64,000 nucleotides of DNA from a virus (IMGVR_UViG_3300023181_000029:14595-78594); one strand, 5' to 3'. Shown: positions 31,978 through 64,000, counted from the first letter of the stretch. Notes: generated by a model from the letters alone, not told the origin. Program-made: numbers and translations.

Positions 31978-32213
31978 ACTGTAGGGGTTAATTCGGTTGG
32001 GGTGTTAGATTGAAGCATAGTGGACGCAATAGCTTCCCAATAATCATAACCTTGCTCGGTTTCAGCCCATCCAAATGCAGATTTTAACGCCAAATAAAAC
32101 GTACTATACGACATTAGGTTACTATGCTTATCATCGCTATCTAGCCCGTAATAATATAATGCCTGCTCCCTTATAGGCTCTGGCAATCTATCTAACCATT
32201 GTGCTATTGTCAT
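31974..32213 (-). CDS. Small 'LPEP' family protein
   Basis: L..LPEP.R.QAL and AF.W....G.DYW; paralog of 45293..45505; 5' end duplicated at 63959. Confidence 0.7.
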   Translation of the reverse strand: MTIAQWLDRLPEPIREQALYYYGLDSDDKHSNLMSYSTFYLALKSAFGWAETEQGYDYWEAIASTMLQSNTPTELTPTV

Positions 32214-32248
32214 TTCTTGGTGGTTTCAAGTTCAATTATAAAATCAGG
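32172..32248 (-). repeat. Inverted repeat, copy A (77 bp visible, exact)
   Basis: Reverse complement is identical to 63924..64000. Confidence 0.95.
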
Positions 32249-32434
32249 CTTGCTTAGCTGTAGGGTGTAGCCGTAGTGGTTGAATAGCTTTACCATGTCG
32301 GGGAACTTAGGTACCCATAAGCCTTTCTCATACTTGCGGTAGGCTACCGTGGATACCCCCATGCCTGATGCTGCTTCGCTTTGTTTTTGCTTGTGTAGCT
32401 TACGATAGTGGGTTAATAGTTCGGGTGTGGTCAT
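32210..32434 (-). CDS. XRE-family HTH protein
   Basis: YRK...KQSEAASGMGVSTVAYRKYEKG..VP motif. Confidence 0.8.
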   Translation of the reverse strand: MTTPELLTHYRKLHKQKQSEAASGMGVSTVAYRKYEKGLWVPKFPDMVKLFNHYGYTLQLSKPDFIIELETTKK

Positions 32435-32497
32435 TTTAGTAATAATAATCCCTTAAATGCGCAGGAAATACGTTTCCAATAATTTCGCTTTCAAATT

Positions 32498-32725
32498 TCA
32501 TAATACTCTGTTTATTTCCTTTAGAAAGGCATTCCATTCAGACATGTTGCCAATGGTTCCAGTGCAAGCCATACGTTCTATGTGTTCAGCTAAAAGAGGG
32601 TATTTTTCAAATGGCTGCTTATTTGCTTCTTCTGCCCCTTTTACTTCCCACCCAACACCAAAAATAGCATCCATTAACTTTTGCTCCTGTGGTGTATATC
32701 CATTCTTATTTGTCTCGGTGCTCAT
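32498..32725 (-). CDS. Hypothetical protein
   Basis: Co-oriented ORF in the leftward early operon. Confidence 0.5.
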   Translation of the reverse strand: MSTETNKNGYTPQEQKLMDAIFGVGWEVKGAEEANKQPFEKYPLLAEHIERMACTGTIGNMSEWNAFLKEINRVL

Positions 32726-32742
32726 ATCTATGAGGTTTTAGT

Positions 32743-33033
32743 CTATCCATTAGTTAATAATACTCTACAATTGTTAACCGCCACTTCAAAGTCAGAGGTT
32801 ATATCGTAGCGGCTTGATTGCAACATTACCTCAACCGCTTCGCTACCTGTAGAGCATGGGTTAAATTCCCATCCCAAGTTGTTTTCATAGAAATTATACC
32901 CGCGCTGCTTCTCTTTACTGTCAATCCAGCAGACGGCTATTGTTTCATGCTCTTTTTTGTCAAGAATAAAATACTTGGCGTTTACTTTAAGCCATTCAAG
33001 GGTTAATATTCTTTCTTCTGTTTCTGGTGTCAT
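32743..33033 (-). CDS. Hypothetical protein
   Basis: Co-oriented, with ATGA coupling to the upstream ORF. Confidence 0.55.
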   Translation of the reverse strand: MTPETEERILTLEWLKVNAKYFILDKKEHETIAVCWIDSKEKQRGYNFYENNLGWEFNPCSTGSEAVEVMLQSSRYDITSDFEVAVNNCRVLLTNG

Positions 33034-33203
33034 ATGGTTTCTTTTACGTAATCTTCAATTGATAATTCACTGCAAAAACTTTCGTACACATCACCACGTG
33101 TTGGTAGCCGGTATTTATACCCCGCAACCTCTAGGGCTTCACATATTGCGCTCCAATACTTATCAAGGTCTTCGTTGTACCAGTTATCTGTTTGTGTGCT
33201 CAT
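33030..33203 (-). CDS. Small hypothetical protein (57 aa, not in ORF track)
   Basis: MSTQTDNWYNEDL...; start and stop overlap both neighbours. Confidence 0.5.
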   Translation of the reverse strand: MSTQTDNWYNEDLDKYWSAICEALEVAGYKYRLPTRGDVYESFCSELSIEDYVKETI

Positions 33204-33343
33204 TATCTATCTAATTGGCTTTCGTTAATGTAAAAGTACATTCCATATTCATGTGAGTTAATAAACTTTTCAGCTTTCTCTCTTGTGCTAAAGCCCTGAA
33301 TATAACTATCCGTAATTTCTCTAAAAACTAAGTACACTATCAT
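33203..33343 (-). CDS. Small hypothetical protein (46 aa, not in ORF track)
   Basis: MIVYLVF...GFSTREKAEKF, a common small phage-protein pattern; first gene after a promoter. Confidence 0.55.
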   Translation of the reverse strand: MIVYLVFREITDSYIQGFSTREKAEKFINSHEYGMYFYINESQLDR

Positions 33344-33352
33344 GTTTGTGGT

Positions 33353-33393
33353 TTTTGTCTTACAAATATAACACAAAGGTTTTGATTTAGCAA
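33353..33393 (-). promoter_or_regulatory. Bacteroidota promoter with TTTGT-N3-ACAAA operator
   Basis: Minus strand reads TTG...TATATTTG; TTTTGTCTTACAAAT at 33353-33367. Confidence 0.65.
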
Positions 33394-33429
33394 GTCTAAA
33401 GACGCTATTATATGAAGTAACGTTTCCTT

Positions 33430-34143
33430 TTACCGCTTCTGCTTCTCGATGAAGTTGGCAAAGTAGGTATTATCCATGTAGCGGAGCGTGTCAAGCAAGT
33501 GGGTGCGCTTTAAATCCGTTTTCACCATGCGCCCTTCCTCTATAGCGTCTTTCATCAACTTGCCTGATTCCCAGCGCACTAGCCTCATGTCCTCAATAAG
33601 GTTATAGCAGCTGGAATGAAACTTCCTGTTAGGGTGGCGGCCAAGTATCGTATTTGATAAAGTCCGGCTCTCGCTTACATTGGGGTTGGAGCGGGTTACA
33701 TCAATCTTTGCGGGCTTTAGCACTTGCTGTACTATTTCCCAATCCCGGAACCTGGATGAGGTCTTACGTGCCCAGCCGCTACTATCACCGGTGCATCTTA
33801 TGTGGCAATGCCCTAACTCGGCTTTAATCCTTTCGCATAGCTTTTCAGTGTTGCTATCGTTCAAATTATATTCCTTGAGCGTATAGTACCAGCCATCCCC
33901 GTACTGATGCACAGAGCATGTTATAGGATCTACGTTAAAGTCAAATGACAAGTAAACGGTAAGCCGTGGGTTGATAGTTATTGAATCGTCAATAAAGGAT
34001 TCATCCCAGCAGTACATAAATGGATTCGTAACCTCTGTATGGCCCCATTCGCCTTTAAAGTATATCCGGTAGTAGTCATAGATGAACACAAAAGTAATCA
34101 TCGTAATTGGAATTATAAACAAGAGCCTGTCAAGCAACATCAT
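33430..34143 (-). CDS. TM helix fused to a terminase-large-subunit C-terminal nuclease domain (no ATPase)
   Basis: N-terminal hydrophobic helix, then DYYRIY..GEWG, SFDFNVDP, TGDSSG, SNP.V and HLLDTLRY. Confidence 0.75.
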   Translation of the reverse strand: MMLLDRLLFIIPITMITFVFIYDYYRIYFKGEWGHTEVTNPFMYCWDESFIDDSITINPRLTVYLSFDFNVDPITCSVHQYGDGWYYTLKEYNLNDSNTEKLCERIKAELGHCHIRCTGDSSGWARKTSSRFRDWEIVQQVLKPAKIDVTRSNPNVSESRTLSNTILGRHPNRKFHSSCYNLIEDMRLVRWESGKLMKDAIEEGRMVKTDLKRTHLLDTLRYMDNTYFANFIEKQKR

Positions 34144-34298
34144 TGTAAAACACTTAAGCAGGTTACCATAAGGACTATTAAAGACAGTATAAGCGTAAAA
34201 CTAGTAAAGGCAATAGTATAAACATGAGCCTCAAATTTGCGTCGCCCGCCATAGCTTGCTAAATACCTATTATTCCAGAGTGTAATAAATTCCCTCAT
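34140..34298 (-). CDS. Small membrane protein (52 aa, not in ORF track)
   Basis: MREFITLW...VYTIAFTSFTLILSLIVLMVTCLSVLQ; ATGA overlaps at both ends. Confidence 0.6.
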   Translation of the reverse strand: MREFITLWNNRYLASYGGRRKFEAHVYTIAFTSFTLILSLIVLMVTCLSVLQ

Positions 34299-34525
34299 AA
34301 GGTGCGGTTTTTAGCTTTCATATCAAGCAAACCGTTCAATACAGTCAAGATATAATTAGCACCAATTAGGTTAACGATAGGAATAAATGCAACTATCAGT
34401 AATGGTTTCTTCTTAAAATTCTCATCCTGCCGGGCTGCCCAAAACGTAAAGCATACAATAACAAGCAATGGGAATACGTATGCAAATACACTAATCCATA
34501 AATACTCCTCGTTAGTAAACTCCAT
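34295..34525 (-). CDS. Small two-TM membrane protein
   Basis: Two hydrophobic segments and FIPIVNL motif. Confidence 0.6.
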   Translation of the reverse strand: MEFTNEEYLWISVFAYVFPLLVIVCFTFWAARQDENFKKKPLLIVAFIPIVNLIGANYILTVLNGLLDMKAKNRTL

Positions 34526-34533
34526 AGCCGTGG

Positions 34534-34590
34534 TTTTGTCCTACAAATATACACCTTGCTTTCTATTGTGCAAATTTTTGTCGTACAAAT
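34534..34590 (-). promoter_or_regulatory. Bacteroidota promoter flanked by two TTTGT-N3-ACAAA operators
   Basis: Minus strand reads TTTG...TATATTTG; motifs at 34534-34548 and 34576-34590. Confidence 0.65.
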
Positions 34591-34593
34591 ATT

Positions 34594-35037
34594 TTACTTC
34601 TTTACGTCAATGCGAGTTTTAGCCTTATGACATGACTTGCATAGTCCTTGAAAATTCCACAAACCCATTCCGCCACCGCCTTTATGAACCGGCAATATGT
34701 GGTCAACATCATCAAAGCCTTCTACGCCGCAATGTTTACAGAAATCCCCTTGAGTAATATACAACATACGCCGTATAGACGAACTATCAGAGGAGCATAA
34801 CCGCCATAACCACTCTAATGTAGAAGCACATTCGCTAGAAGACCAGCGCGTTTGACGACCTGTAATCGGTGTTCCGCAGCCACAATCGCATAATCCATCG
34901 TTCTTAGGCGGCAATAATCTAGTAAAGAAATTAGATGTCTTTTGTCTGCGGCTGTATGGATTAATAATACCATCAGCAACCAACTTATTAAATCGGGCTA
35001 AATCATAATTGGCTACTATTTGTGGTATTGTATCCAT
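34594..35037 (-). CDS. HNH endonuclease (HK97 gp74-like) with extra Cys cluster
   Basis: CKHCG...DVDHILPVHKGGG...NFQGLCKSCHKAKT; N-terminal CDCGCG. Confidence 0.88.
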   Translation of the reverse strand: MDTIPQIVANYDLARFNKLVADGIINPYSRRQKTSNFFTRLLPPKNDGLCDCGCGTPITGRQTRWSSSECASTLEWLWRLCSSDSSSIRRMLYITQGDFCKHCGVEGFDDVDHILPVHKGGGGMGLWNFQGLCKSCHKAKTRIDVKK

Positions 35038-35759
35038 GTGTAGAACAAAGCTAAATAGAATTTCCTGTAATGGGCAGGGAGTATTAATACTATAAATGGT
35101 AAAAGGTAATTGCTATAGGGTACCTGTGATATAATGAGAGGTGACCTGCGGAAATGTTTCGGGAATACTAATATTGACTATCTCTGCTTGATAACAATCT
35201 TGCTTGACAGAGTATATGTGTACTTCGTGCATGTATACCGGGCATTTAATCCGCGAGGGCAAGTCGCTCAATCTCGACCGGGTACATCAACCTCACGAAA
35301 TCCTAACTTGCCCACCAATTTCAAAACCAAAGCACAAAAGCCAGTCCATACTATAGAACTAAGCTAAAACATGGTTATGACGTAGCGATACATCAATTAA
35401 TCATGTGTGCTAATGGGAATGACTTACTGTGTGGTATGTGCTAGGCTGTGGTGCTAATGCGAATTATCTCATTAGGTTGCAATACGTCTATGGTTAAGTT
35501 ATCATACACGCCAGTTAAACGACTAGGTGAATATAACGACTGCTCATACATTGTATGTATTTCAATTAAGTATCTTGTTTGGTTGCTCATAGGGCTAAGG
35601 TAATAATATTGCAGTTAACTATATTAGCGATGATAGTTTACAATGCGCCTAATTACATGTTATTTCTGGATTATCGGTGGGGTAGGGGAGGGGCTGAGGC
35701 ACACTGACATAATGGCTATTTAACATAAACGTGGTTATCGTGGGATTTTGGTAAACGCT

Positions 35760-35787
35760 GGAAACTTTAAATGTTCCCGCAGTTTCC
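35760..35787. promoter_or_regulatory. Palindromic operator GGAAACT-N14-AGTTTCC (copy 1)
   Basis: Directly upstream of the TTG...TATCTTTG promoter of the HTH gene; second copy at 36155. Confidence 0.6.
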
Positions 35788-35839
35788 TATTGCAATCCTC
35801 ATACCTATGTATTATCTTTGTTGACATAAGTCGCTGCAA

Positions 35840-36064
35840 ATGATTAGTAAAAGCCCACTTTTGGCAAAAGACATACTTAAGGAAGCACGTAAAAGGCGTA
35901 AATTGACGCTATCGCAGGCCGCAATAGTTACTAAAATTAAGGCATCGACACTATCAAGGTATGAAAACGGCAACAGAAAGATATCAGCAGATGACTTTAT
36001 AAGTATTTTGGGTTATTATAGTGCTCATATTGCCATTATTGAGGCAGATTTTCTATTAACTTGA
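35840..36064 (+). CDS. XRE-family HTH regulator
   Basis: LKEARKRRKLTLSQAA...IKASTLSRYENGNR. Confidence 0.88.
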   Translation: MISKSPLLAKDILKEARKRRKLTLSQAAIVTKIKASTLSRYENGNRKISADDFISILGYYSAHIAIIEADFLLT

Positions 36065-36154
36065 CATTACCTGCTGGAATATGCACACAAAAGGCATGTT
36101 TTGGCAATTATTATGAGTGAAAACAGGTGCAAGAAACAGTCAAAATCCCTTAAC

Positions 36155-36182
36155 GGAAACTTTAAACACACTGAAAGTTTCC
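36155..36182. promoter_or_regulatory. Palindromic operator GGAAACT-N14-AGTTTCC (copy 2)
   Basis: Same arms, same 14-bp spacer, same TTAAA spacer start as copy 1. Confidence 0.6.
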
Positions 36183-36224
36183 ATAGTTCCTATATTTTAG
36201 CGGTAAATAGTTGATATTCACAGC

Positions 36225-36710
36225 GTGAGCAATGCGAAGTCATACGCCTATAAGACTAGCGGATATAATACTCCTGAGCGTGATACACAGAAGTCTGTCC
36301 CTGCTATCACTGCTTATCTTCATGAGCGTAGGCGCATCTATACACTTGTCCTGCATGAATTATGCCCTCCCCGCCCTTCGGGGTCTACTGATAGACGTAA
36401 ACGTATCTTAGATGATATTGTACACTCTGACTTAGATACACTTCTTTACTGTGTTGGTCTGGATATGCGTGAGATAGTCATTATTATAGGCTGTGATTTA
36501 CTCGATAATACTGGCCTGCCTTTAGTTGAAGGCCTTTCAAAGCGTGAGTTTAACCGCATGGATAAATTAGGTCTATTAGGTATCCGCAAGCGTGGGCGTG
36601 TTGAGGTCGAAGGCAAATACTATGATACAGCACGAATATCTGATAAAGGCTTAAAGCTATGCGCACGTATTGGTGAGCTTGTGCGCAAGGTTGCGCAAGA
36701 TTACCGATAA
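36225..36710 (+). CDS. Hypothetical protein, possible C-terminal winged helix
   Basis: MDKLGLL...ISDKGLKL pattern; followed by a terminator. Confidence 0.45.
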   Translation: MSNAKSYAYKTSGYNTPERDTQKSVPAITAYLHERRRIYTLVLHELCPPRPSGSTDRRKRILDDIVHSDLDTLLYCVGLDMREIVIIIGCDLLDNTGLPLVEGLSKREFNRMDKLGLLGIRKRGRVEVEGKYYDTARISDKGLKLCARIGELVRKVAQDYR

Positions 36711-36711
36711 T

Positions 36712-36744
36712 AACAAAGCCCCGCATTACTGCAAGGGCTTTGTT
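36712..36744. terminator. Bidirectional intrinsic terminator
   Basis: AACAAAGCCC...GGGCTTTGTT between convergent units. Confidence 0.7.
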
Positions 36745-37143
36745 TAATTGTTGTTACTGGTGTTAGCTCTTAACTAATATCCGTAACGCTATAGATAGGG
36801 CTTCGTATGCATCTCCTATTAATTTGTCTTTGTTGTGGCGGTCAGGATGTGCGCCTACTAGCCCCATTGCTTGCGCTATGTGTAATATTGCATCCTTTCT
36901 GCTCTTATCTTCTTGCTCTTTCATTCTGTTATGTTTAGTGGCTAGTTATTTGATTTTCTTTCTAAAGCTAGCGGTTACTACATAATCACATAGTTCACTA
37001 CCATAAGCCTCAATCCAATTTTGGGCTTGTGCGCTTTATATCCTGCTTATTATTACAATAATGAACCTCGCAATACTTCCCGCTACTTATTACTAATTGG
37101 TGCCCTCCGGTGCTGTGTTATAGGCTTGATGTCTTTATAGTGC

Positions 37144-37338
37144 TCATATAATTTCCCTTGTGGTTATTGTAGTTACTTTTACTATGCGGGTTTGGTATGC
37201 CTCAAATAGTTCGCTTGCTGCTGTCTTTGCCGCTTCACTTAATGTATCTTCAAGTATGGTGCATTGCGCCCAATTCTCATGCTTTGGGCTTTTGTATTCA
37301 ATTTGGTAGTATTCCGTTGTTTCTGTCTTTGTGCTCAT
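37144..37338 (-). CDS. Small hypothetical protein (shared motif family)
   Basis: W...DTL.EA...RIVK pattern shared with 51178, 51366 and 48970. Confidence 0.55.
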   Translation of the reverse strand: MSTKTETTEYYQIEYKSPKHENWAQCTILEDTLSEAAKTAASELFEAYQTRIVKVTTITTREII

Positions 37339-37341
37339 GGG

Positions 37342-37593: not shown

Positions 37594-37619
37594 AAGTCCG
37601 TTTTTTGTTTCGATTATTA

Positions 37620-41340: not shown

Positions 41341-41370
41341 TTTCAAATAACCGCTTAAAACTAAACGACA

Positions 41371-43283: not shown

Positions 43284-43790
43284 ATGCCTGAGCAAAATAT
43301 AATATGGCGACCAATAGTTGGTTTCAATGGAAAATACTTGGTAAGCAATACAGGTCAAGTAAAATCTACAATCAGGGGCAATATCTTTAAAAACCAAGTT
43401 CAACAACCTGGATATTGCAGAATAGTTCTGTACTTAGATAAAAAGCCTTACACCTCTCAAGTACACCGCTTGGTCGCACAAGCGTTTATATCAAACCCCG
43501 AAAACAAGAAAGAAGTTAACCATAAAAATGGTTGCAAAACAGACAACAGGGTTGAAAACTTAGAGTGGTGTACTGCAAGCGAGAATCAGAAACATGCATA
43601 TAAATATTTGGGAAGAATCCCTCAAACAGGAGAGAAGTGTGGACACGCTAAATTTACTAACAACCAAGTAGCTTTAATTAGAAAAGAACATGCCCCGGGT
43701 AATTTTTCGATAAAAGACTTGTGTCTTAAATATCCTATATCCTACTGCGGGATGCGTAATATTGTTAATTACACTACATATAGATTTTAA
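43284..43790 (+). CDS. NUMOD4-HNH homing endonuclease
   Basis: WRPIVGFNGKYLVSNTGQVKS, VHRLVA.AF and VNHKNG.KTDN...NLEWCT. Confidence 0.92.
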   Translation: MPEQNIIWRPIVGFNGKYLVSNTGQVKSTIRGNIFKNQVQQPGYCRIVLYLDKKPYTSQVHRLVAQAFISNPENKKEVNHKNGCKTDNRVENLEWCTASENQKHAYKYLGRIPQTGEKCGHAKFTNNQVALIRKEHAPGNFSIKDLCLKYPISYCGMRNIVNYTTYRF

Positions 43791-45537: not shown

Positions 45538-46326
45538 ATGCAGTACAGTATTTCCTTTAACCAAAAAGCAGCCGTTGATAGCAAGTTGCCACTGGATGTT
45601 ATAGATTTATCAATCCTTGCTTTCATTAAGGATTTTACGCATACTGGAAACTGTAACCATGTAAATTTTGGCGGTAAATCATATTACTGGATTAGCCATA
45701 AGCTAATAATCGATAACATGCCGTGTTTAGGTATAACTTCTAAGAGCGGTATCTTTAAAAGAGTTAAAAAACTATGCGAATTAAAGGTACTTACGGCGCA
45801 TCCAGACAATCAAATACTATCATCGTCTTACTATACTTTTGGCGACAATTATTCAGCATTATTTTTCTCAACATCTACCGAACAAAAAAACGACTTGTCA
45901 CCTACGCCTGAAAGTATGCACCCTACGCCTGAAAAGCCGAAGGGCTACTCCCGAAAAGGCATAGCCCCTACGCCTGAAAAGGTAGAGTACTATAAATACT
46001 ACTTAGATAATGGGAATAAAGAACAAACTATTAAGGTTCCAAGTGATTTTTTGAAATCTTCTGAGGCAGAAAAAGAACGGTACTTAATTTTCCAAAGGCA
46101 GATTGAAGAAGAATATCAAAAGGTTTATCAGTTAGAACCGATAAGTATTAAAATATTAACCAACTGTTGTGTGATTTACGGCAAAGAAACAGTTATGGAT
46201 AAAATAGGGGCTATGGAAAATTGCGCTGATTTGCTGAAAAAATATAGTAGCGCAGGGCTTACTCTTAAAACTTGGCTAAAAAGAGAATTAACGCTGGAAC
46301 AAAAACGGGCACAGAAAAAGGGATGA
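45538..46326 (+). CDS. Replication initiator protein (lambda O-like organisation)
   Basis: N-terminal wHTH-like region (YYWIS...I..K...KRVKKL), internal iteron repeats, directly upstream of the primase-helicase. Confidence 0.75.
   Translation: MQYSISFNQKAAVDSKLPLDVIDLSILAFIKDFTHTGNCNHVNFGGKSYYWISHKLIIDNMPCLGITSKSGIFKRVKKLCELKVLTAHPDNQILSSSYYTFGDNYSALFFSTSTEQKNDLSPTPESMHPTPEKPKGYSRKGIAPTPEKVEYYKYYLDNGNKEQTIKVPSDFLKSSEAEKERYLIFQRQIEEEYQKVYQLEPISIKILTNCCVIYGKETVMDKIGAMENCADLLKKYSSAGLTLKTWLKRELTLEQKRAQKKG
45901..45979 (+). repeat. Iterons / putative replication origin
   Basis: CCTACGCCTGAAA at 45901, 45922 and 45967; degenerate GCTACTCCCGAAA at 45944; spacing 21-23 bp. Confidence 0.75.
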
Positions 46327-48083
46327 TACGCAATATTTGGAACGAGATAGATTTCAAGGGGCGCGCAAGTGGACAGCACAAATTTATTTGCCCCAATTGC
46401 AGCCACACTCGCAAGGATAAGAAAGACCCTTGCTTGTCAGTGAACCTCAATGAGCAAACATACAATTGTCATAACTGCGGCGCTACCGGCTGCAAACTAA
46501 GACCAGTGAGAGAGAAAAAAGAACCTGTTATTTTACCAAAATTAAACACCTCCGATTTGAGCGATAAAACGTTCAAGTATCTGAACGAGGTTCGTATGAT
46601 TTCTAATACAACAATCAAGCGCAACAGGATTACCGAAGGTCAGTATTTTATGCGAGGTGAGAATATGAATTGCATTTGGTTTAATTACTATGTGGATGGG
46701 CAGCACACGAATACTAAATTCAGGAGCGGAAAGAAGCAGTTCGCACAAGTATCTAATGCTGATAAGCACTTTTATAAGGTTGATGATTTAGTAGGGCAAA
46801 CCGAGGCGCTGATTTCGGAAGGTGAATTTGACGCCTTGTCATGGGAAGAAGCAGGATTCTTAAATTGCGTATCGGTTCCTGATGGAGCATTGCAGCCTAC
46901 CCAAAATCATAGTGATAAGAAGTTTGAGTATATCGACAATGATATTGATAAGTTTGCCACTATTGAACGGATTTACTTAACTACGGATAATGATGCGCCG
47001 GGTATTGCTTTGCAGAAAGAGTTATCGCGTAGGTTTGGTAGAGAGCGTTGTTATATCATTGATTTAGGTGAATACAAGGACGCTAACGAAGTTTTGCAGA
47101 AGCTAGGCCGCTTTGATGGTTGCGAGTATTTGAAAGCCGCTAAAGAAGCCGCAAAGCCTTACCCACTGGAAGGGGTGCAAACAGTGGATGATTTAGCCGC
47201 CTCTGTGTTTGAGATTTATGTAAATGGCATTGATAATGGCGCAGGTATAGGATTTGGCTCACTGGATGAGCATGTTCGATGGCTAGTTGGGTGGTTTTAT
47301 TTAATTACTGGCGTGCCATCACATGGGAAAAGCTCGTGGTTAGACCAAGTGCTTTGTAAGCTAATGGAAAGGGAATGGAAGTTTGCTATATTTTCTCCCG
47401 AACATGCCCCTGAGTTACACCTACATAGAATGGCTAAAATAATATCTGGTAAAGCGTTTTGGGGCACTGAAAGAATGTCTTCTGACGAGTTAGAGGATAT
47501 TTTATATCAGCTAAATAAGAGGTTGTTTTTTATACGCCCAGACGACGAGGACTTTTCACTAGATAATATCCTAAAACTATCCCGTCAGTTAGTGGCGCGG
47601 CATGGTATTAAGGGTTTAGTTATCGACCCGTGGAATACACTAGACCACCAGGGAGCAGGAAGGGATAAGGGCGATTATATAAGCAATGCCCTTAGTAAGA
47701 TTAATGTATTTAAGCTACGTAATGATTGCTCCGTATTTCTAGTGGCGCATCCGACTAAAATGCAGAAGAATGATGACGGTACATATAAGGTTCCAACCGG
47801 TTATAACATTAGTGATAGCGCTCACTTCTATAACAAATGCGATATAGGGATTACCGTTTACCGAAACGATAATAATATCGTTGACGTAGAGATGTGGAAG
47901 GTAAAATTTGAAGGACTAATAGGCAAGAAAGGAACCGTCCAGTTTACATACGATAAGATTAATAATCGTTACACAGAGTATAGTGAGTTCCAGCAAGTTC
48001 AAGACACTCGATACGAAGTCGAGAACAACCGAAAGATAGCAAGACTCACAGAGGAGCCTAAAATTTCAAACGTACCTTTTTGA
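46323..48083 (+). CDS. Primase-helicase (T7 gp4/Twinkle-like)
   Basis: Zn finger CPNC...CHNCG; TOPRIM EGEFDAL and DND..G; SF4 helicase TGVPSHGKS, VIDPWN and VAHP.K. ATG at 46323 overlaps the initiator stop (ORF track starts at 46272). Confidence 0.92.
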   Translation: MIRNIWNEIDFKGRASGQHKFICPNCSHTRKDKKDPCLSVNLNEQTYNCHNCGATGCKLRPVREKKEPVILPKLNTSDLSDKTFKYLNEVRMISNTTIKRNRITEGQYFMRGENMNCIWFNYYVDGQHTNTKFRSGKKQFAQVSNADKHFYKVDDLVGQTEALISEGEFDALSWEEAGFLNCVSVPDGALQPTQNHSDKKFEYIDNDIDKFATIERIYLTTDNDAPGIALQKELSRRFGRERCYIIDLGEYKDANEVLQKLGRFDGCEYLKAAKEAAKPYPLEGVQTVDDLAASVFEIYVNGIDNGAGIGFGSLDEHVRWLVGWFYLITGVPSHGKSSWLDQVLCKLMEREWKFAIFSPEHAPELHLHRMAKIISGKAFWGTERMSSDELEDILYQLNKRLFFIRPDDEDFSLDNILKLSRQLVARHGIKGLVIDPWNTLDHQGAGRDKGDYISNALSKINVFKLRNDCSVFLVAHPTKMQKNDDGTYKVPTGYNISDSAHFYNKCDIGITVYRNDNNIVDVEMWKVKFEGLIGKKGTVQFTYDKINNRYTEYSEFQQVQDTRYEVENNRKIARLTEEPKISNVPF

Positions 48084-50107: not shown

Positions 50108-50518
50108 ATGAAGACACTAAAAGAAGTAACCAAAGAAATCGAAACCACAATGGCCGATATTGCAGCACAGCGAGGCATACAAAATAGCAGCAAGGATGAA
50201 GACAAGATAGAAAAAGCTAGGCTTAAAGAGAAGCGTCTATCTAAACACCTGAAATTTCTGACTACTGCGAAATTGTATCTTGAAAAGACCCCTAGAGAGG
50301 GTTTTATCCAAGAAACAATAGATAAGACCGAAGCCGCTATTCAAGAAATAAACACAAGAGCGCCACGACTAGAACAGTTCGAAGGACGAGAGTATGCGCT
50401 AGAATTGTATAAGGCAGCACTAAAGCAACATAACGACGAATACCGCTTATCAGATAAGAAAAAGCACCTTAAATTGCCGTACTACTTATTGAACAAAAAT
50501 ATTACCAATAATCCATGA
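50108..50518 (+). CDS. Hypothetical coiled-coil protein
   Basis: Charged helical ORF coupled to the resolvase. Confidence 0.5.
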   Translation: MKTLKEVTKEIETTMADIAAQRGIQNSSKDEDKIEKARLKEKRLSKHLKFLTTAKLYLEKTPREGFIQETIDKTEAAIQEINTRAPRLEQFEGREYALELYKAALKQHNDEYRLSDKKKHLKLPYYLLNKNITNNP

Positions 50519-50967
50519 CAAAGCCAAAGTACGTTATCGGCATAGATGGCGGTGTTAATACTGGCTACGCTGTGTATGACCGTATAGAACGTAAATTAAC
50601 CACTGTATTCACTACAGATTTTTGGGGAGCGGTACGACTACTTGATTTGGTCGCCGCTCCTGAAAATATTGCTGATTATGAGGTCTACATCGAGAACCCA
50701 TCAGGAAACGCGCCTACGTTCGCGAAACAGGGCGCAAAAGGCATGTTAGTGTATAATAAGATAAGTCAAAATGTAGGGGCCAATAAAAGAGAGGCAATAC
50801 TCTTGATTGAGTACTGCCGGTTAAAGGGAATTAAGGTTACGCCAGTTCGACCAAATAAATCAAGCATGACTAAATTATCGGCTGATAAATTTCAGAAGAT
50901 TACAGGGTATGTAGGTAGAACTTCGGAGCACTCACGCGACGCTAGCATGATGATTTTTGGGCGTTAG
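50515..50967 (+). CDS. RuvC-like Holliday junction resolvase
   Basis: VIGIDGG..TGYAV, VYIE and EHSRDA RNase H-fold motifs. Confidence 0.8.
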   Translation: MTKPKYVIGIDGGVNTGYAVYDRIERKLTTVFTTDFWGAVRLLDLVAAPENIADYEVYIENPSGNAPTFAKQGAKGMLVYNKISQNVGANKREAILLIEYCRLKGIKVTPVRPNKSSMTKLSADKFQKITGYVGRTSEHSRDASMMIFGR

Positions 50968-53700: not shown

Positions 53701-54195
53701 ATGGAAGAAATTTGGAAAGATGTAGTCGGGTATGAGGGACGGTATATGATTAGTAGCTTGGGGAATATCCGAAGCAATACTTCGCATGGTAAAGGAAGAC
53801 TGCTGTCCTTTAAAAACAAGTCTGTCTATTGCAAGGTGACATTTTATAAAGAAAAAATAAAGTCCCATATTTTAGTTCATCGTCTTGTCGCTATGCACTT
53901 TATTCCTAACCCCGATAATAAAGCTACTGTGAACCACATTTCAGGCGATAAAGCAGACAATCGTGTCATTAACTTAGAATGGTGTACACAGAAAGAAAAT
54001 ATAAAGCACTCATTCGAGGTTCTAAAAACAAACTACAGTAACAGGAAACAAAAGCCAGTGCTGCAATGTAGCACAAGTGGGGATACAATAAAAGAATGGA
54101 AGAACATAAAAGAGGTGGCAGAATACTATGGGGTGTGCTATTCAGCAGTAAACAATGCGGTTATTGGATATTCTGATAGATTTAGGGGCTTTTAA
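53701..54195 (+). CDS. NUMOD4-HNH-NUMOD1 homing endonuclease (C-terminal motif out of frame)
   Basis: IWKDVVGYEGRY.IS..G, VHRLVA, VNHI.GDK.DN...NLEWCT and KPVLQ...IKEW. Confidence 0.9.
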   Translation: MEEIWKDVVGYEGRYMISSLGNIRSNTSHGKGRLLSFKNKSVYCKVTFYKEKIKSHILVHRLVAMHFIPNPDNKATVNHISGDKADNRVINLEWCTQKENIKHSFEVLKTNYSNRKQKPVLQCSTSGDTIKEWKNIKEVAEYYGVCYSAVNNAVIGYSDRFRGF

Positions 54196-54219: not shown

Positions 54220-55095
54220 ATGACACGAGAAGAATATATAGCCCTAGACGCGATTAACTATAGCCTGCTTAAGCAGTACCTTAAAAGCCCGAAGCACTTT
54301 AAGGCTGCATGGGATAATCGCAAGGACGACAATAAGGAAACGGAAGCTAGGATTATAGGCAAAGCAATACACAAACTTGCTTTGGAGCCTGCTAGTTTTA
54401 AGGATGAATATGCCTATCTTGATGCAGACAAGCGCCCTGAGTTAGATAAGGATTTTAGGAACGCAAAGAACCGCGACTGGCGTAAAGAACAATTATCTTT
54501 AATGGACGGTAAAAGCGTGTTGGATAAAGAGGATTGGAGCACCGTGGTATCAATGGGCGGCTCAATAGCTGATTGCGATGCTGCTATGAGATTATTAAGC
54601 GGCTGCAAAACAGAAGCTATAATACAATGGACTGACGCGCAAACAGGGATTAAGTTAAAAGCAATAGTGGACTTCTATAATGACCAGCGCCAATTTCCTA
54701 TACACGGCGACCTTAAATCGTTAGAAGACGGTAGCCCTAGCGGAGTTAGCGGATTTATAAGCAAGTGGCAAACATACTTACAATTAGCTATGTATGGTGA
54801 GGGATTGCAAGCGGTTACAGGCAAGCCATTTGATAATCCATTTATTATTACTTGCGAGAAGTCAGAACCATACATATGCCAACCATACTTTCTTGACCAA
54901 GCAAGTTACAATTTAGGCAAGCAGGTTTTTAGGTCGCTATTAAACCTACACAAGCAATGCTTAGAGAAGAAAGAATGGAAGGGCTACGACGTTACGGTTA
55001 AACCAGAGGATGTGCATAGCGGTGTTTTGGTAGCACATTTGCCGGACTATGTTTTTAACAAAATAGAAAACAGTTTTTTACTACAAAACAATTAA
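54220..55095 (+). CDS. RecE/exonuclease VIII-like PD-(D/E)XK exonuclease
   Basis: INYSLLK..LKSP.HF, IGKAIH...LEP, LKAIVD, DLKS and Y.LQLAMY; adjacent to recT. Confidence 0.85.
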   Translation: MTREEYIALDAINYSLLKQYLKSPKHFKAAWDNRKDDNKETEARIIGKAIHKLALEPASFKDEYAYLDADKRPELDKDFRNAKNRDWRKEQLSLMDGKSVLDKEDWSTVVSMGGSIADCDAAMRLLSGCKTEAIIQWTDAQTGIKLKAIVDFYNDQRQFPIHGDLKSLEDGSPSGVSGFISKWQTYLQLAMYGEGLQAVTGKPFDNPFIITCEKSEPYICQPYFLDQASYNLGKQVFRSLLNLHKQCLEKKEWKGYDVTVKPEDVHSGVLVAHLPDYVFNKIENSFLLQNN

Positions 55096-55098
55096 GAC

Positions 55099-55881
55099 AT
55101 GAAAGAGATTAAGCAGTTTTTTGAACAAGATAATGTTAAAGCAAAGTTTGTAGAGCTGCTTGGCAAAAGAGCGCCACAGTTCATAACCTCTGTGCTACAG
55201 ATAACAGCCAGCAATTCGTTATTAGCCAATGCAGACCCAATGAGCGTGTATAATGCAGCGGCAACAGCAGCTACACTGGATTTACCTATAAATAATAACC
55301 TAGGGTTCGCGTACATAGTACCATACAATCAAAAGCAGCCTGACGGCTCATATAAGCAAGTAGCTCAGTGTCAAATTTCATACCGTGGGTTCACGCAATT
55401 AGCGCTCCGTAGCGGGCAGTTTCAGACAATATCAGCCTCTCCTATCTATGAAGGGCAGTTGGCATCTAGCAACCCACTTTTAGGCTATGTTTTTGACTTT
55501 GAAAAGAAGACATCTGACAAGATAATAGGGTTTGCTGCTTATTTCCGCCTGCTTAATGGGTTTGAGAAGACTTTTTACATGACTACAGAGCAACTAAAGG
55601 CTCATGGGCTAAAGTACAGCCAAACGTACAAGAAGAAGTACGGGCTTTGGGAAACTGACTTTGATGCGATGGCGCTCAAAACCGTGATAAAATTACTGCT
55701 ATCTAAGTTTGCGCCTTTGTCAATCGAAATGCAAAAAGCCGTACTTGCTGACCAAGGAATCATAACGGCGCTAGAAACAGCCGAAGAACCAATGCAGGTT
55801 GAATATATCGACAACGACCCTGATGCTGAGAAGAAAGAGCAAGCGGATAAAATCCAGAACGTAATGTCAGAAGGCAAATAA
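55099..55881 (+). CDS. recT: RecT single-strand annealing recombinase
   Basis: LDLPINNNLGFAYIVPY, QISYRGF.QLALRSGQ and W..DFDAMALKTV...LL.K.APLSIE. Confidence 0.93.
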   Translation: MKEIKQFFEQDNVKAKFVELLGKRAPQFITSVLQITASNSLLANADPMSVYNAAATAATLDLPINNNLGFAYIVPYNQKQPDGSYKQVAQCQISYRGFTQLALRSGQFQTISASPIYEGQLASSNPLLGYVFDFEKKTSDKIIGFAAYFRLLNGFEKTFYMTTEQLKAHGLKYSQTYKKKYGLWETDFDAMALKTVIKLLLSKFAPLSIEMQKAVLADQGIITALETAEEPMQVEYIDNDPDAEKKEQADKIQNVMSEGK

Positions 55882-58705: not shown

Positions 58706-58845
58706 TGAAGCAATTCCTAAAGCGCCTATTTTGCGACCATACGTTCACAATTCACAGCATAAGTAGTATTAATGGCTTCAAGAAAGTTACAGCCTACAAA
58801 TGCGTTAAATGCGGTAAAATAAGCACTCAGGGATATGGGATATGA
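58705..58845 (+). CDS. Small Zn-ribbon protein (46 aa, not in ORF track)
   Basis: MKQFLKRLFCDH...KCVKCGK. Confidence 0.55.
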   Translation: MKQFLKRLFCDHTFTIHSISSINGFKKVTAYKCVKCGKISTQGYGI

Positions 58846-59218
58846 ATCAGGATGGCGCGCTATACCGAAGCCGGAAAAGCAGCCGAAGAAACAATCGAAA
58901 GGATTAATTAAAAAGCCCAAATCCGCCACGGGCGAAAAGGCTTTATTTGATAAACTATACAAAGAAAGTAATAAGCGGTGCCAGATAACCGATAAACCGC
59001 TATTGCCGCCTGAACATGACCTATATATTAGACAATTTTCCCATTGCCTCACAAAAGCTGCTTATCCAAGTTATCGCTTAGAGCCTAGTAATATTGTGCT
59101 TATGCTGCCAGAATGCCACTATGATTGGGAGTTTAATCGTCACAAGATTAAAGGCGACCCGAAATGGCAATGGCACTTTGAACTTGAGGAAGAATTAAAA
59201 GAGCAATATCATAAATGA
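58835..59218 (+). CDS. HNH-like nuclease
   Basis: RCQIT, FSHCL.K..YP..R....NIVL...ECH. Confidence 0.65.
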   Translation: MGYESGWRAIPKPEKQPKKQSKGLIKKPKSATGEKALFDKLYKESNKRCQITDKPLLPPEHDLYIRQFSHCLTKAAYPSYRLEPSNIVLMLPECHYDWEFNRHKIKGDPKWQWHFELEEELKEQYHK

Positions 59219-59427
59219 AAAATACCCCACCAAAGCAGGGTATTAGTACATTGCCGCCAATGCGCCATGAATAATTTACGGGGCTACGCTCTACGTAGGG
59301 GTTAAATCAGCAACGCACTCCACTATACAGATGAATACAAGTCCACTTCAAGGAGCATCTGTGCTAGTTTATTGAACGGCTCGCAGAAATGTCTTCCTGT
59401 TCACTCACTCCCCAACCTTGAAGTCTT

Positions 59428-59763
59428 TTACGCCTTTAGTCCGCTAACGAACTCTATGATTTTATTTTTGCCGTATTCCTTGGCTAAGTCTATTAGTTTG
59501 TTTGCGAACTCATCTACGTTGGTGCTGTCGAGCCATTTATTGTGTTCATCTACAACCTTATTGAAGGTATCGATATTTACGGGGTGGTACATTCCAAGCA
59601 AGACTACTCTGTTTCTCCTGGGGGATGTAACGCGATGTTTCTTGCCAGTAACAATCGTAGCTACACGGGCTGTAATGTAAGCACCAGCTTTTTTAAGGGC
59701 TTTTTGCAATTGCTCCTCAGTGCTGTCAAGGCTAATATGCGTTGATTTTTCGAATATCTTCAT
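59428..59763 (-). CDS. Hypothetical protein
   Basis: Last gene of the minus-strand cassette. Confidence 0.5.
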   Translation of the reverse strand: MKIFEKSTHISLDSTEEQLQKALKKAGAYITARVATIVTGKKHRVTSPRRNRVVLLGMYHPVNIDTFNKVVDEHNKWLDSTNVDEFANKLIDLAKEYGKNKIIEFVSGLKA

Positions 59764-59779
59764 ATTTATTGGTTGTTGT

Positions 59780-60148
59780 TTAGTAGGTGAATATCTGCCA
59801 GTCGTTAGCTAATAGGTCAGTCTGTGACGCAAGCCATCCGTTAACTATAGTTCCGTCAGCAGCCTTCATACAGATGTATTCAGTGAATTTGATTTTAGTT
59901 AGTCCCTGTTCAGAACCAGCCTCTTTTGCATCCTGTGCAGCGTAGTAATCCTTTAGGCTTTTAGGCAAAGATTTTACCTTCTCAATAATAAATCCTACTT
60001 CAAGTTCGTCAGCAGGCCTTGTAAATAGAAACATGCCTTTGCCGTTCCATCCTACTCGGGTTACAAGTTCGCCATCCTTTAGTAGCTGTAGGGCGGCACT
60101 AAACGATAAATTTTCTTTTGTTCTTAGCACTGGTGTTGTGTTATCCAT
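59780..60148 (-). CDS. tad2: DUF2829 / Tad2-like anti-defence sponge protein
   Basis: F..AL..LK.G..V.R.GWNGKGMF and GWLASQTD.LA.DW signatures. Confidence 0.8.
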   Translation of the reverse strand: MDNTTPVLRTKENLSFSAALQLLKDGELVTRVGWNGKGMFLFTRPADELEVGFIIEKVKSLPKSLKDYYAAQDAKEAGSEQGLTKIKFTEYICMKAADGTIVNGWLASQTDLLANDWQIFTY

Positions 60149-60354
60149 AATGGTTGTTGTTTAGTCTGTAAACTTAGACATTTTCTTGAATGTAAATCGG
60201 AACCCGTCATTATCGGTGTATGTGGTGTCGCCGTTATCGTTCTTAGGAAATGGCTTTGGTTTTGGCACAAAGCCAATATGTGCGCCACACCAAGTAGCTA
60301 GTCCGTTGTAGATATGGAACCAGTTGTCGCCTACTCTGTGGCATAGCGCTTCCA

Positions 60355-60606
60355 TCAATCTTGAAAATCTTCACGGTTACGGTCGGCAACCTTCATCGCT
60401 TCTTTAACTACGCTTACAGTTAAAAGCATATCGCCACCATTAGGGCATTTAACGTATAGGCGCTCTTTGTCGCTTTCGCCGAAGACAAAAGTCTTATTGT
60501 GTACCCATCGCGGAATAGCTGGTGTTTGATGCTGCTGTGCTTTACAAAGCGCGTACATAATAACAGCTCCGACTAAAATCCCGATTCCAAGAAATGCTAT
60601 AGTCAT
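60355..60606 (-). CDS. Small protein with N-terminal TM segment
   Basis: First gene after the minus-strand TATCTTTG promoter. Confidence 0.5.
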   Translation of the reverse strand: MTIAFLGIGILVGAVIMYALCKAQQHQTPAIPRWVHNKTFVFGESDKERLYVKCPNGGDMLLTVSVVKEAMKVADRNREDFQD

Positions 60607-60619
60607 AAATAGTGATTTT

Positions 60620-60687
60620 ATACTCCAAAGATAGAAAAATATTTGAAGGATGGAAATTTGTACGACAAAATGTTTTAGATTTGAGGT
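60620..60687. promoter_or_regulatory. Divergent promoters with TTTGT-N3-ACAAA operator
   Basis: TATCTTTG (-), ATTTGTACGACAAAA at 60656-60670, TAGATTTG (+) at 60676-60683. Confidence 0.6.
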
Positions 60688-60925
60688 ATGGAAGGATTAA
60701 TTATTGCATTAACAGTAATAGGAGGCTTCGCTTGTGGATACGCATTTTATCATGTATGGGAACTGTTGCAATGAAACCAGCATGCATCAACTGCTTCTGG
60801 TTTTCAAAAAACACTGTTTGCTATATAGCTGACAAATTAGTCGAGCCTACTATGAGTTGCTTAGACTTTTCTAAGGCTGGGTTGTCGGTTATAAAAGAAC
60901 GTGAAGAACAATTAAAGGATAAGAA

Positions 60926-61549
60926 ATGAATAAGGTATTTTTCGATACAGAGTTTATTGAAGGCTCAATATCCAAGAAAGGAGTAATCGGTTATGTACAG
61001 CGATTCCTACACCGGAGGGGCATAATTAAGTTGCCGTGGTCTATACAATTAGTAAGTATAGGGCTGGTGTTTGAACACGGGAAAGGCATTTATCTCCTTA
61101 ATAAGGACTTTAACCCGCATGATGCCGACCAATGGGTAAGGGATAATGTATTGGCTAAATTGCCGCCTCGCAAAACACCACACAGGGGATTTCCGCACAT
61201 TGAACTTGATACCCCTGAGTGGAAATCGTTATCTGAAATAAGGGACATCCTAATTTACGAACTTGACGGGACAGATAATGAATTTTGGACTTATTATGCC
61301 GCCTATGATTGGGTTGTATTTTGTTCCATATTCGGCAGAATGATTGACTTACCCAAAGGCTATCCGATGTTCTGTATGGATTTGAAGCAATTAATGGAGT
61401 CGAAAGGATTAACAAAGGAATGGAAGCAAGCAGTTTGCCCTGACCCTGTTGGTGAGCACGACGCCTTAGTTGATGCTAAATGGAATAAAAAACTATACGA
61501 TATTATCGCCGAGAGAGAAGCTGCTTTAAATACAAATTCGGCAAAATAA
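60926..61549 (+). CDS. DEDDh 3'-5' exoribonuclease (Rv2179c/RNase AS-like)
   Basis: FFDTEFIE, LVSIGLV, WV.DNV, YYAAYDWV, DLKQ and HDALVDA.W. Confidence 0.88.
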   Translation: MNKVFFDTEFIEGSISKKGVIGYVQRFLHRRGIIKLPWSIQLVSIGLVFEHGKGIYLLNKDFNPHDADQWVRDNVLAKLPPRKTPHRGFPHIELDTPEWKSLSEIRDILIYELDGTDNEFWTYYAAYDWVVFCSIFGRMIDLPKGYPMFCMDLKQLMESKGLTKEWKQAVCPDPVGEHDALVDAKWNKKLYDIIAEREAALNTNSAK

Positions 61550-62198
61550 CCTCCTTGCCTGTGACGCTACTAAGAATCGATGCGCAATTATTAGAAGCAG
61601 GATTATATACACTTCCGCGTTTAGCTTCTATACTATCTATATTAATACCCTCTACTGGAACGAATATCATATTTTTAAGCATGTGTCTACGTAACGGCAC
61701 CTTTGTATAGACGTTCTTCTGAAATGTATAAATATATCCATTTGCTATCAAGGCGCACCCCGAAACTTCTGTCCCATTCCATGTAGTTAGGAACTGCCAA
61801 AAATTACTAGGCCTAAAGAACGCCACTACAATTCCTCCCACATACTCTGTAGCTAAACCCTTTAGCGAGTGCTTATAATCCAGCCATAAACCTAGAGTTA
61901 GGCCAAAAACGATAGGTACCAACGATAGCGCTATTGATAGGTTGTATCTTTCGCTTAAAAATAGGTAATCAGGAATATCATAAGCCAAAGTAGCCGTGTA
62001 TGTGATGCAAGCAATTGTCGCCACTCTTTCTTTAGTCTTATACATTAAGCAACCAATAAACACCCATGCAATACATCGGCTAACTATAATGCATAAGTCA
62101 TTTACATAGAATGAGAAGTCACCCTCAAAAAGAAGGTCGAAGTAGTTTAGTACTACTCCGACCAATATGATTATAAATGTGACTATTTTAAGGTTCAT
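61503..62198 (-). CDS. Multi-TM protein with a possible permuted papain-like C-terminal domain
   Basis: About four TM segments, then YNPASNNC. Confidence 0.5.
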   Translation of the reverse strand: MNLKIVTFIIILVGVVLNYFDLLFEGDFSFYVNDLCIIVSRCIAWVFIGCLMYKTKERVATIACITYTATLAYDIPDYLFLSERYNLSIALSLVPIVFGLTLGLWLDYKHSLKGLATEYVGGIVVAFFRPSNFWQFLTTWNGTEVSGCALIANGYIYTFQKNVYTKVPLRRHMLKNMIFVPVEGINIDSIEAKRGSVYNPASNNCASILSSVTGKEVILPNLYLKQLLSRR

Positions 62199-62283
62199 TA
62201 CCTATGGACTTTAATAGGGCATCTCTTGCGTCTACCGCGTTTTACGGGAAGCATGCTAACCGCTCTATGGATTATTACGCTTG

Positions 62284-62559
62284 TCATGCTAGGAACGGTT
62301 GAACTCTTAGGTAAAGGCCATTCAGGTTATCATTTACCGCTTCTATTTTAGAGCCTGCTTGAAACAGGTAGGTTATTTTGTTGTTGATAGATACTGGCGA
62401 ATGCGAGAAATCATTTGCAACCGTCAATGTGCCTGAATCCGGCGCTAAGTATTCTACATAAACAGCGTCGCCTTTCTTAAGGGTGTTCATGGTTGAACTT
62501 GCTTCAATTGCTATGTCGCAGTTCGGGGTAAAGCTCATTTCTTCGTATCCTGATGGCAT
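62284..62559 (-). CDS. Hypothetical protein
   Basis: Beta-rich 91 aa; first gene of a leftward unit. Confidence 0.5.
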   Translation of the reverse strand: MPSGYEEMSFTPNCDIAIEASSTMNTLKKGDAVYVEYLAPDSGTLTVANDFSHSPVSINNKITYLFQAGSKIEAVNDNLNGLYLRVQPFLA

Positions 62560-62624
62560 ATTTTTTTCTTGCGAATATAGCGCGAAACTTTGAATATGTG
62601 GGTTAAAGTTTTGTGAAATATTAT

Positions 62625-62659
62625 TTGGTTGTTTGAAAACATTGTATTACATTTGTGAC
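62625..62659 (+). promoter_or_regulatory. Bacteroidota promoter, probably leaderless
   Basis: TTG at 62625-62627, 20 nt, TACATTTG at 62648-62655, 4 nt, ATG at 62660. Confidence 0.6.
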
Positions 62660-63779
62660 ATGGAAACTGAGCAGATGAAGTTTTACAAAGAACTTGCGAG
62701 GCGTGTAACTCGTAATGGGGTGCCTCGTGATATTGAAATATCTAAGCAGGTTTCGCAATATGCTATCAGCGAGTTAAGCGTTGTAAGATATTTAACCCAT
62801 AAAAATAATATAAAAACCTCATAAAATGAACATCCAAGCAGCAATAGACAAAATTAGTCAAATTAACCAAGAGCAACCATCAGAAGTTAAATCAACAGTC
62901 TTAAAAGAGGCGGTTAGTGCTGCCGTCCATCAGTTGCGTAAATCGAGAACTAAGTTAAGCGATATGAAGCGTAAGGGCATAAAGATAATACCATGAGTAA
63001 GCTATGCAAACAGAAAGAACACGCTTGGGAGCAGATGCAGGATATGCCACGCCGCTATAAATGCACCATTTGCAATGTTATCGGTAAGATTCGTTGTAGT
63101 ATGAAAAATAAAGGGACTAAAGTTTTGCCAATTCAATAATAAACCGCATTTATGAAAGAAGGAGAAATAGTAGTACTGGATAGTGGCCGCAAAAATGGTG
63201 GGCCTGTTAGGCTGGTAAAATTACGCCAATTTTATGCCCGTGTTAAAGACGAACAAACAGGCGAAGAATGGGACGTAATGAAGTTTCGGTTAGACTCATT
63301 TGATGAAAAATATAAGCAATCCAAGCAGTACAAGGAATTATTGTTTCAAGGTCAAAATATGCACCCTGATATAAATCACCCAGACAGATGAAAGCATATC
63401 AAGAACAAGAAACGTACATATCAGAGGCCATTAGGCAGCTTAATAACCTAGGCTGTGACCATGACAGAGGTATAATTAAAGAATATTTTCAAGACGAATG
63501 GCCTATTGAAGATGCAGTTTATGATATAGCGTCAAAGCAAACTGACATTGAACTATAAAATAATCCGCACATGACAATAGCGCAAAAGAAGAGAGCAGCT
63601 AGGATATTTGCTTTCTCTATATTGTGGAATTGCATTCCAAGCATAACCGATGAGGATTCTGATGAAGCAGCAGAGGTTTTGTTGTGCTTAAACGATTACG
63701 TACACCATAACTTGCAAAAGTTAAAAAGCGATGGCGTATCTGATTTAGGAAGGGCAATCGAACAAGTTAAAAAAGCAAA

Positions 63780-63962
63780 ATGAGCCGACCATACAAGCAA
63801 GACTTAACAGCAAAAATAATAATCCGCGTACATCCAGATACAAAAGCGGCAGTCGTTAAGGCCGCAGGGAAAAGAACAATCAGCGATGAATTAAGACCGG
63901 ATATTGAGAAGAAATATTTGAAACCTGATTTTATAATTGAACTTGAAACCACCAAGAAATGA
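63780..63962 (+). CDS. Ribbon-helix-helix-like DNA-binding protein
   Basis: MSRP....AKIIIRVHP..K..V..AA..RTISD.LR; C-terminal 13 aa identical to the HTH at 32210..32434. Confidence 0.6.
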   Translation: MSRPYKQDLTAKIIIRVHPDTKAAVVKAAGKRTISDELRPDIEKKYLKPDFIIELETTKK

Positions 63963-64000
63963 CAATAGCACAATGGTTAGATAGATTGCCAGAGCCTATA
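63924..64000 (+). repeat. Inverted repeat, copy B (runs off the window end)
   Basis: Exact reverse complement of 32172..32248. Confidence 0.95.
63959..64000 (+). CDS. 5' part of a second copy of the 'LPEP' gene
   Basis: MTIAQWLDRLPEPI is identical to the start of 31974..32213. Confidence 0.75.
   Translation, partial: MTIAQWLDRLPEPI

Follow-up and report, generated by a model that had tools for sequence, protein, structure and literature searches.

A 279-bp inverted gene-cassette repeat and a possible two-isomer genome in a leaf-litter phage

The stretch IMGVR_UViG_3300023181_000029:14595-78594, 64,000 nucleotides of viral DNA referred to below as the window, spans positions 14595 to 78594 of one 78,594-bp virus contig, and the end of the window is also the end of that contig. 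On balance, we favour a reading in which this phage carries an inverted duplication of a 279-bp gene cassette on a circular map of ~78.7 kb, running from a 46,466-bp virion and accessory arm through the repeat into a 31,675-bp replication and recombination arm, and closing through the second repeat. A flip-flop of the arms across this repeat is plausible, and the inverted-repeat layout itself is already known from cyanophages of Anabaena. We tentatively suggest that the present phage, of the Bacteroidota type and unrelated to these cyanophages, may exist as two coexisting isomers produced by its own RecE/RecT, the deposited contig being the isomer inverted with respect to the wider group.

Extent of the repeat and the assembly graph

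The first-pass annotation of the window described an exact inverted repeat of 77 bp running into the window end, and sequence comparison agrees: once reverse-complemented, window 63924-64000 is identical to 32172-32248. Searching the window for repeats extends the pair to 32172-32251 / 63921-64000 (80 nucleotides at 99%). An exact 77-mer of this kind cannot have arisen by chance in 64 kb, and no second repeat of comparable length is found elsewhere in the contig. The full length, left open by the annotation, became apparent once the contig start was compared, position 64000 being the contig end. Indeed, contig bases 1-97 are the exact reverse complement of window 31970-32066. The 77-bp match at the contig end and the 97-bp match at its start therefore delimit an internal repeat of 279 bp (window 31970-32248), which looks cut by the window end because the contig broke inside copy 2. 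Of this second copy, 174 of the 279 bp are present (77 + 97), split over both contig ends. The 105 bp in its middle, corresponding to window 32067-32171 and to codons 15-49 of a gene encoding a 79-residue protein, are absent from the contig. The elements of the map are as follows.

31970-32248, minus strand: copy 1 of the 279-bp inverted repeat, complete and internal, delimited by exact matches of its ends to the contig end and start
32249-63923, no strand assigned: unique arm between the copies, 31,675 bp, with replication and recombination genes and many small early genes (a single 31,735-bp contig at k=31)
63924-64000, plus strand: start of copy 2 (77 bp), truncated at the contig end; its last 97 bp are contig bases 1-97, outside the window

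The read data consist of contigs assembled at k=31 from one public run (X1) of a 2018 leaf-litter metagenome, probably the source of the record, and all the evidence comes from this one sample. Only one sequencing run contains the sequence, and the collections searched hold no second record of this phage. In this independent assembly, exactly three records fall on window 31300-33000. The first is a 46,526-bp contig; each of its ends shares 30 bp with the 31970 end of the repeat, the two overlaps lying on opposite strands. The second is the 279-bp repeat itself, which forms a contig of its own, unbranched and free of variants. The third, of 31,735 bp, overlaps the 32248 end of the repeat with both of its ends. 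Subtracting two 30-bp overlaps from each of the two long contigs gives the lengths of the unique arms, 46,466 and 31,675 bp. Lengths and overlaps together therefore describe a dumbbell graph, as expected of a circular map that contains a single pair of inverted repeats and totals 78,699 bp. The nearest two relatives of the terminase sit on contigs of 77,034 and 78,907 bp and, given these sizes and the closed graph, we take ~78.7 kb as the whole genome. The IMG/VR record is classed as linear with a CheckV completeness of 68%, a value that is probably too low.

The same graph bears on the orientation of the arms. Since the repeat is longer than any k-mer used in the assembly, it collapses into one node of the dumbbell, and since nothing available bridges 279 bp, the deposited arm orientation is one of two paths compatible with the graph. 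Where a branch drops out at a repeat, a unitig assembler retains exactly k bases of that repeat. Both 77 and 97, the lengths of the two stubs, occur in the k series 27, 37, ..., 127, which we take to be that of a common metagenome assembler preset, the assembler used not being on record. If the stubs are such assembler products, the orientation was set by lost branches and not by linking evidence. The guanine-cytosine (GC) skew follows the gene strand and cannot decide the arm orientation.

Other topologies were considered and set aside. Two strains bearing one copy each at different loci do not fit, as each of the long contigs enters the repeat for 30 bp without any earlier branch. Hairpin-ended, protein-primed, and terminal-repeat genomes predict other graph shapes or a higher repeat depth. 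The caveat that the second copy might simply be a mis-assembly is unlikely to hold, as both copy-2 junctions recur in the independent k=31 assembly.

Genes of the repeat and the recombination machinery

Read in its sense direction, the repeat comprises the last 12 codons and the stop of an upstream gene, a complete gene of 79 codons, and the first 8 nucleotides of the next gene (ATGAGCAC). Translations bear out the proposal that both upstream genes terminate in KPDFIIELETTKK and are coupled to the same gene: each overlaps the ATG of the MTIAQWLDRLPEPI gene by ATGA. The genes in and beside the two copies, taken from the map of open reading frames (ORFs), are listed below.

31974-32213, minus strand: 79-residue protein, encoded wholly within the repeat; uncharacterised family of small helical phage proteins (phrog_25460, E 5e-10)
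32210-32434, minus strand: XRE-type helix-turn-helix (HTH) regulator of 74 residues, upstream of copy 1, its last 12 codons in the repeat (Pfam HTH_3)
31774-31977, minus strand: 67-residue protein downstream of copy 1, starting MSTEIK; the first 8 nucleotides of its gene close the repeat (ORF map)
31774-35037, minus strand: 3.3-kb block from an HNH endonuclease gene (Pfam, E 1.6e-7) to copy 1 and the gene of the 67-residue protein (ORF map)
63780-63962, plus strand: 60-residue protein upstream of copy 2, with the 13-residue tail KPDFIIELETTKK; RHH-like by pattern only

The 79-residue protein belongs to a real, conserved, and widespread phage family devoid of any characterised function. It has 210 homologues among 1.8e9 representatives, either stand-alone or in tandem arrays. 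The family domain is helical and spans ~65 residues; it occurs alone in many phage-like contigs, and proteins of 250-820 residues contain as many as seven units of it in tandem. The family consensus reads KTIxEWLxxLPEPYRxxAL...AFxWxxTxEGxxYW, and the conserved residues of the protein itself are W6, F47, W49, and W59. The AlphaFold model is all-helical, with a predicted local distance difference test (pLDDT) score of 87. The protein is not assigned to any Pfam family, and nothing informative was returned by Pfam, a PDB sequence search, Foldseek against the PDB, VIA-align (best Z 3.1), or the ESM Atlas, the matches in BFVD being to uncharacterised viral proteins only.

The two upstream genes fared differently in the searches. 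The XRE HTH label given to 32210-32434 (minus strand) is upheld by a Pfam HTH_3 hit (E 3.8e-5) whose score of 24.1 bits exceeds the curated cut-off of 23. The RHH-like label of the 60-residue protein finds no such backing: a Pfam search up to E 10 returned nothing, nor did PHROG or PDB sequence searches, and its AlphaFold model (pLDDT 49) displays two helices following a possible strand. A 53-residue orthologue, P0175, encoded on a 1,346-bp ENA contig from another sample, is 85% identical to it over residues 1-46, and diverges thereafter to end in PIINIPD. The tail shared with the XRE regulator is therefore no fixed part of the 60-residue protein. This orthologue is also the only sign of a related phage elsewhere.

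On the downstream side, copy 2 is followed by a stub of 7 codons, MSTEISR, with the same start as the 67-residue protein. Past the exact block, 6/8 bases still match between the copies, and both downstream ORFs begin MSTEI. This gradual loss of similarity speaks for an evolved paralogous locus rather than for a chimeric join. Of note, the gene of a 70-residue protein two genes upstream of copy 2 starts (63571-63585) with the same 15 nucleotides as the repeat gene (63959-63973) but for one base, ATGACAATAGC[G/A]CAA, encoding MTIAQ, and several minus-strand genes near copy 1 begin with ATGAGCAC (MST...). Such shared gene starts may be sites of cassette exchange. Also near copy 1, a 237-residue ORF (33430-34143, minus strand) matches weakly the nuclease domain of large terminases (phrog_10250, E 0.0019) and is devoid of the ATPase half. 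Scans for promoters and terminators stayed at chance level, and neither an Rfam family nor a tRNA was found in the window.

The genes that may act on the repeat, together with the primase/helicase and the terminase that mark the two arms, are the following.

482-2605, plus strand: large terminase (phrog_6681, E 2e-64)
46272-48083, plus strand: DNA primase/helicase with Toprim and DnaB_C domains (phrog_239, E 3.6e-79)
50515-50967, plus strand: Holliday-junction resolvase (phrog_1770, E 2.5e-16)
54220-55095, plus strand: RecE-like exonuclease (phrog_412, exonuclease VIII, E 4e-50)
55099-55881, plus strand: RecT-like single-strand annealing protein (phrog_148, E 2e-75)

The RecE-like and RecT genes are adjacent and make up a phage recombination module; an endonuclease VII-like protein is also encoded. 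The claim that the repeat brackets the entire early half of the genome stands in part. The 31,675-bp arm does carry the primase/helicase, the RecE-like exonuclease, RecT, and the resolvase, but the contig start, which is outside the arm, adds ~6 kb of small accessory genes and a further HNH endonuclease. At least four free-standing HNH endonuclease genes are spread over both arms (43284-43790, 53701-54195, 34594-35037, and 5019-5756 of L001), three of them in phrog_59; these endonucleases may give rise to double-strand breaks and gene conversion. As the first-pass annotation had noted, no site-specific recombinase is apparent: neither serine nor tyrosine recombinases (PF00239, PF00589) are detected at E <= 1 in six frames of the whole contig, positive controls being recovered in 13/14 and 14/14 genomes.

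Homologous recombination is expected between inverted copies of 279 bp, or even of 77 + 97 bp, on one replicon. The RecE-like exonuclease, RecT, and the resolvase would thus keep the copies identical through recombination or gene conversion, and the same reaction would flip the 31.7-kb arm with every ORF surviving. Both junction ORFs would stay intact after an inversion, as the first-pass annotation expected. A flip would swap only which upstream operon reads into the gene of the 67-residue protein and which into five small genes at the contig start. The result would be a passive structural isomerism, as in plastids and the Anabaena cyanophages, and not a programmed switch.

Arm orientation in relatives and comparison with known systems

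Three distant lineages exhibit the same GroES-terminase-portal order, namely the Elemovirus phages of Flavobacterium, the Manatee Spring podovirus (MW202828), and the Cellulophaga phage phi46:3. In all three lineages, the replication and recombination genes oppose the terminase strand (15/15 of the Elemovirus records). In the present contig, the terminase, the primase/helicase, and RecE/RecT share one strand, and an inversion of the 31.7-kb arm between the two copies would bring back the layout of the group. Either a real inversion across the repeat happened, or the assembler took the other path. At the DNA and protein levels, queries with the repeat gene, the terminase, its nearest relative, and an exact 38-mer from the repeat middle returned neither a further copy of the repeat nor a close relative from the phage collection, IMG/VR, or the metagenome contigs of JGI.

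The closest known case is that of the Anabaena cyanophages A-1(L), N-1, Elbi, A-Lf14, A-Alj1, and A-Hlh1, which possess a conserved ~30-kb region between inverted repeats of 400-700 nucleotides; polymerase chain reaction (PCR), Sanger sequencing, and read mapping establish that both isomers coexist, no dedicated recombinase being known (bioRxiv 10.64898/2026.02.14.705889). We measured the Elbi repeat arms at 617 bp, with 99.7% identity and a spacing of 29,932 bp, in agreement with the published note (PMC8297451). The resemblance to the present phage lies in the following: these cyanophages are tailed, their genomes of 64-69 kb have ~30 kb with replication genes bracketed by near-identical inverted repeats, the orientation varies between records, and there again no dedicated recombinase is known. 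They differ in that their isomers are established by PCR, Sanger sequencing, and reads, whereas the two forms considered here are candidates compatible with the assembly graph; the position of their repeats is conserved across nine relatives, whereas the repeat is absent here in distant relatives; and their repeats are mostly intergenic, whereas here a complete gene cassette is repeated. No shared protein is detectable between Elbi and this phage, which would therefore represent an independent occurrence.

The flip-flop of the large single copy-inverted repeat-small single copy (LSC-IR-SSC) plastid genome has the same two unique arms, single inverted repeat pair, and dumbbell de Bruijn graph; plastid isomers arise by homologous recombination, and short reads cannot resolve their orientation (PMC7145664). 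Plastid repeats are, however, 10-30 kb long and found at 2x depth, as compared with 279 bp at ~1.1x here. A recombination-mediated flip-flop across inverted repeats, giving structural genome isomers, has also been proposed for the Burkholderia jumbo phage Matilda (bioRxiv 10.64898/2026.10.21.760668). This 267-kb linear genome differs by two repeat pairs near its physical ends, four isomers, and long-read support, whereas one pair splits ~79 kb here. The G segment of Mu with Gin, the C segment of P1 with Cin, and the 2-micron plasmid with FLP also place a segment between inverted repeats, with the same two-arm geometry in the 2-micron plasmid. In contrast to the present phage, in which neither recombinase family was found, these systems depend on short specific sites and on a serine or tyrosine recombinase dedicated to them. 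The invertible segments of phages (Mu G, P1 C) span a few kb and switch tail-fibre genes.

Weighing the readings

That both isomers coexist at appreciable frequency, RecE/RecT-type recombination flipping the replication arm in every growth round, seems to us possible rather than probable. The two copies agree perfectly over at least 174 bp, the phage has genes for a RecE-like exonuclease, RecT, and a resolvase, the layout of the contig is inverted as compared with that of the three distant relatives, and the phenomenon was demonstrated experimentally in the Anabaena cyanophages and phage Matilda (bioRxiv 10.64898/2026.02.14.705889, 10.64898/2026.10.21.760668). Nevertheless, the unusual orientation may be the arbitrary path of the assembler, and the k=31 contigs, which cannot bridge the repeat, provide no direct evidence. 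A set of observations weighs against the coexistence of isomers and also against the circular map with two full copies. Among the data available, no read, read pair, or contig links the junction on one side of the repeat to that on the other, and both isomers are putative. The mean k-mer depth of the repeat is 15.4, as compared with 13.8 and 14.4 for the arms, i.e. ~1.1x (one figure per contig, from one run at ~14x), and two full copies per genome would predict a depth of ~28. This argues that most molecules are devoid of two full copies and, as the GC content of the repeat equals that of the genome, composition bias does not account for the low value. The middle 105 bp of copy 2 are never found joined to their flanks, and the assembler traversed copy 1 and stopped on both sides of copy 2, a hint that the copy-2 joins are weakly covered. 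Moreover, the three distant lineages contain no inverted repeat of at least 60 bp, so that the expected conservation of the repeat in related phages is not seen at this distance, these lineages (25-27% terminase identity) being too remote for a test of its position. The low depth may be coverage noise at ~14x, or most molecules may end physically at or near copy 2, or copy 2 may be truncated. The last two form a reading of their own, in which copy 2 is incomplete or under-represented, the phage being mostly linear (arm 1, repeat, arm 2) with ends near the stubs, or retaining a remnant without codons 15-49, with a recombination target of only 77 + 97 bp; we regard this reading as doubtful. It would explain the depth and the halt of the contig on both sides of a copy whose counterpart is passed through, and the IMG/VR record is indeed classed as linear. 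The 105-bp gap is a multiple of three, exactly 35 codons, which makes an in-frame deleted remnant possible; in such a remnant the invariant residues F47 and W49 would be missing. In the cleaned k=31 graph, however, the 279 bp form a single unbranched contig, with neither a deletion joint nor loose ends, no microhomology is present at the putative deletion break, and local coverage noise at ~14x may be large.

An assembly artefact, in which a single copy exists and the terminal stubs are chimeric or strain-mixture joins, is improbable. The repeat depth of about one copy-equivalent suits it, as do the location of the feature exactly at both contig ends and the single sample, for which no second record of the phage was found. 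The k=31 assembly by a second, independent program, however, recovers both copy-2 junctions at the tips of its 46.5-kb and 31.7-kb contigs, which have equal depth, it contains no repeat-free alternative junction, and the diverged stub of the downstream gene beside copy 2 is not expected of random chimeras. The single-copy outcome that the first-pass annotation held against its own proposal thus agrees with the depth (15.4 as compared with 13.8 and 14.4) and disagrees with the junctions recovered at k=31. More remote still is a programmed inversion switch, or a device similar to that of the 2-micron plasmid that would turn theta replication into rolling-circle amplification, as the annotation had envisaged. 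Two unique arms separated by inverted repeats do recall the geometry of the 2-micron plasmid, but no site-specific recombinase was found, the repeat is an ordinary coding cassette and not a recombinase site, and a flip alters only the operon read-in to the gene of the 67-residue protein and to five small genes. Phages with RecE/RecT already replicate via recombination intermediates, which counts against the need for such a switch, and nothing specific favours the conversion of theta into rolling-circle replication. We therefore retain, as marginally the better-founded description, the circular map with two inverted copies of the 79-codon gene cassette, on which isomerisation would be passive.

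Several consequences follow for phage genomes recovered from metagenomes. A phage contig ending within an inverted repeat may carry a large segment in arbitrary orientation, and a contig of this kind may be recorded as linear and 68% complete despite a closed assembly graph. A simple depth check can in turn question the completeness of the second repeat copy. If both isomers of the leaf-litter phage exist, it would be a second, unrelated phage lineage that isomerises without an invertase, which would suggest that the cyanophage case is no curiosity. Whole-arm isomerism would then be recurrent in tailed phages, and systematically hidden or misreported by short-read assemblies.

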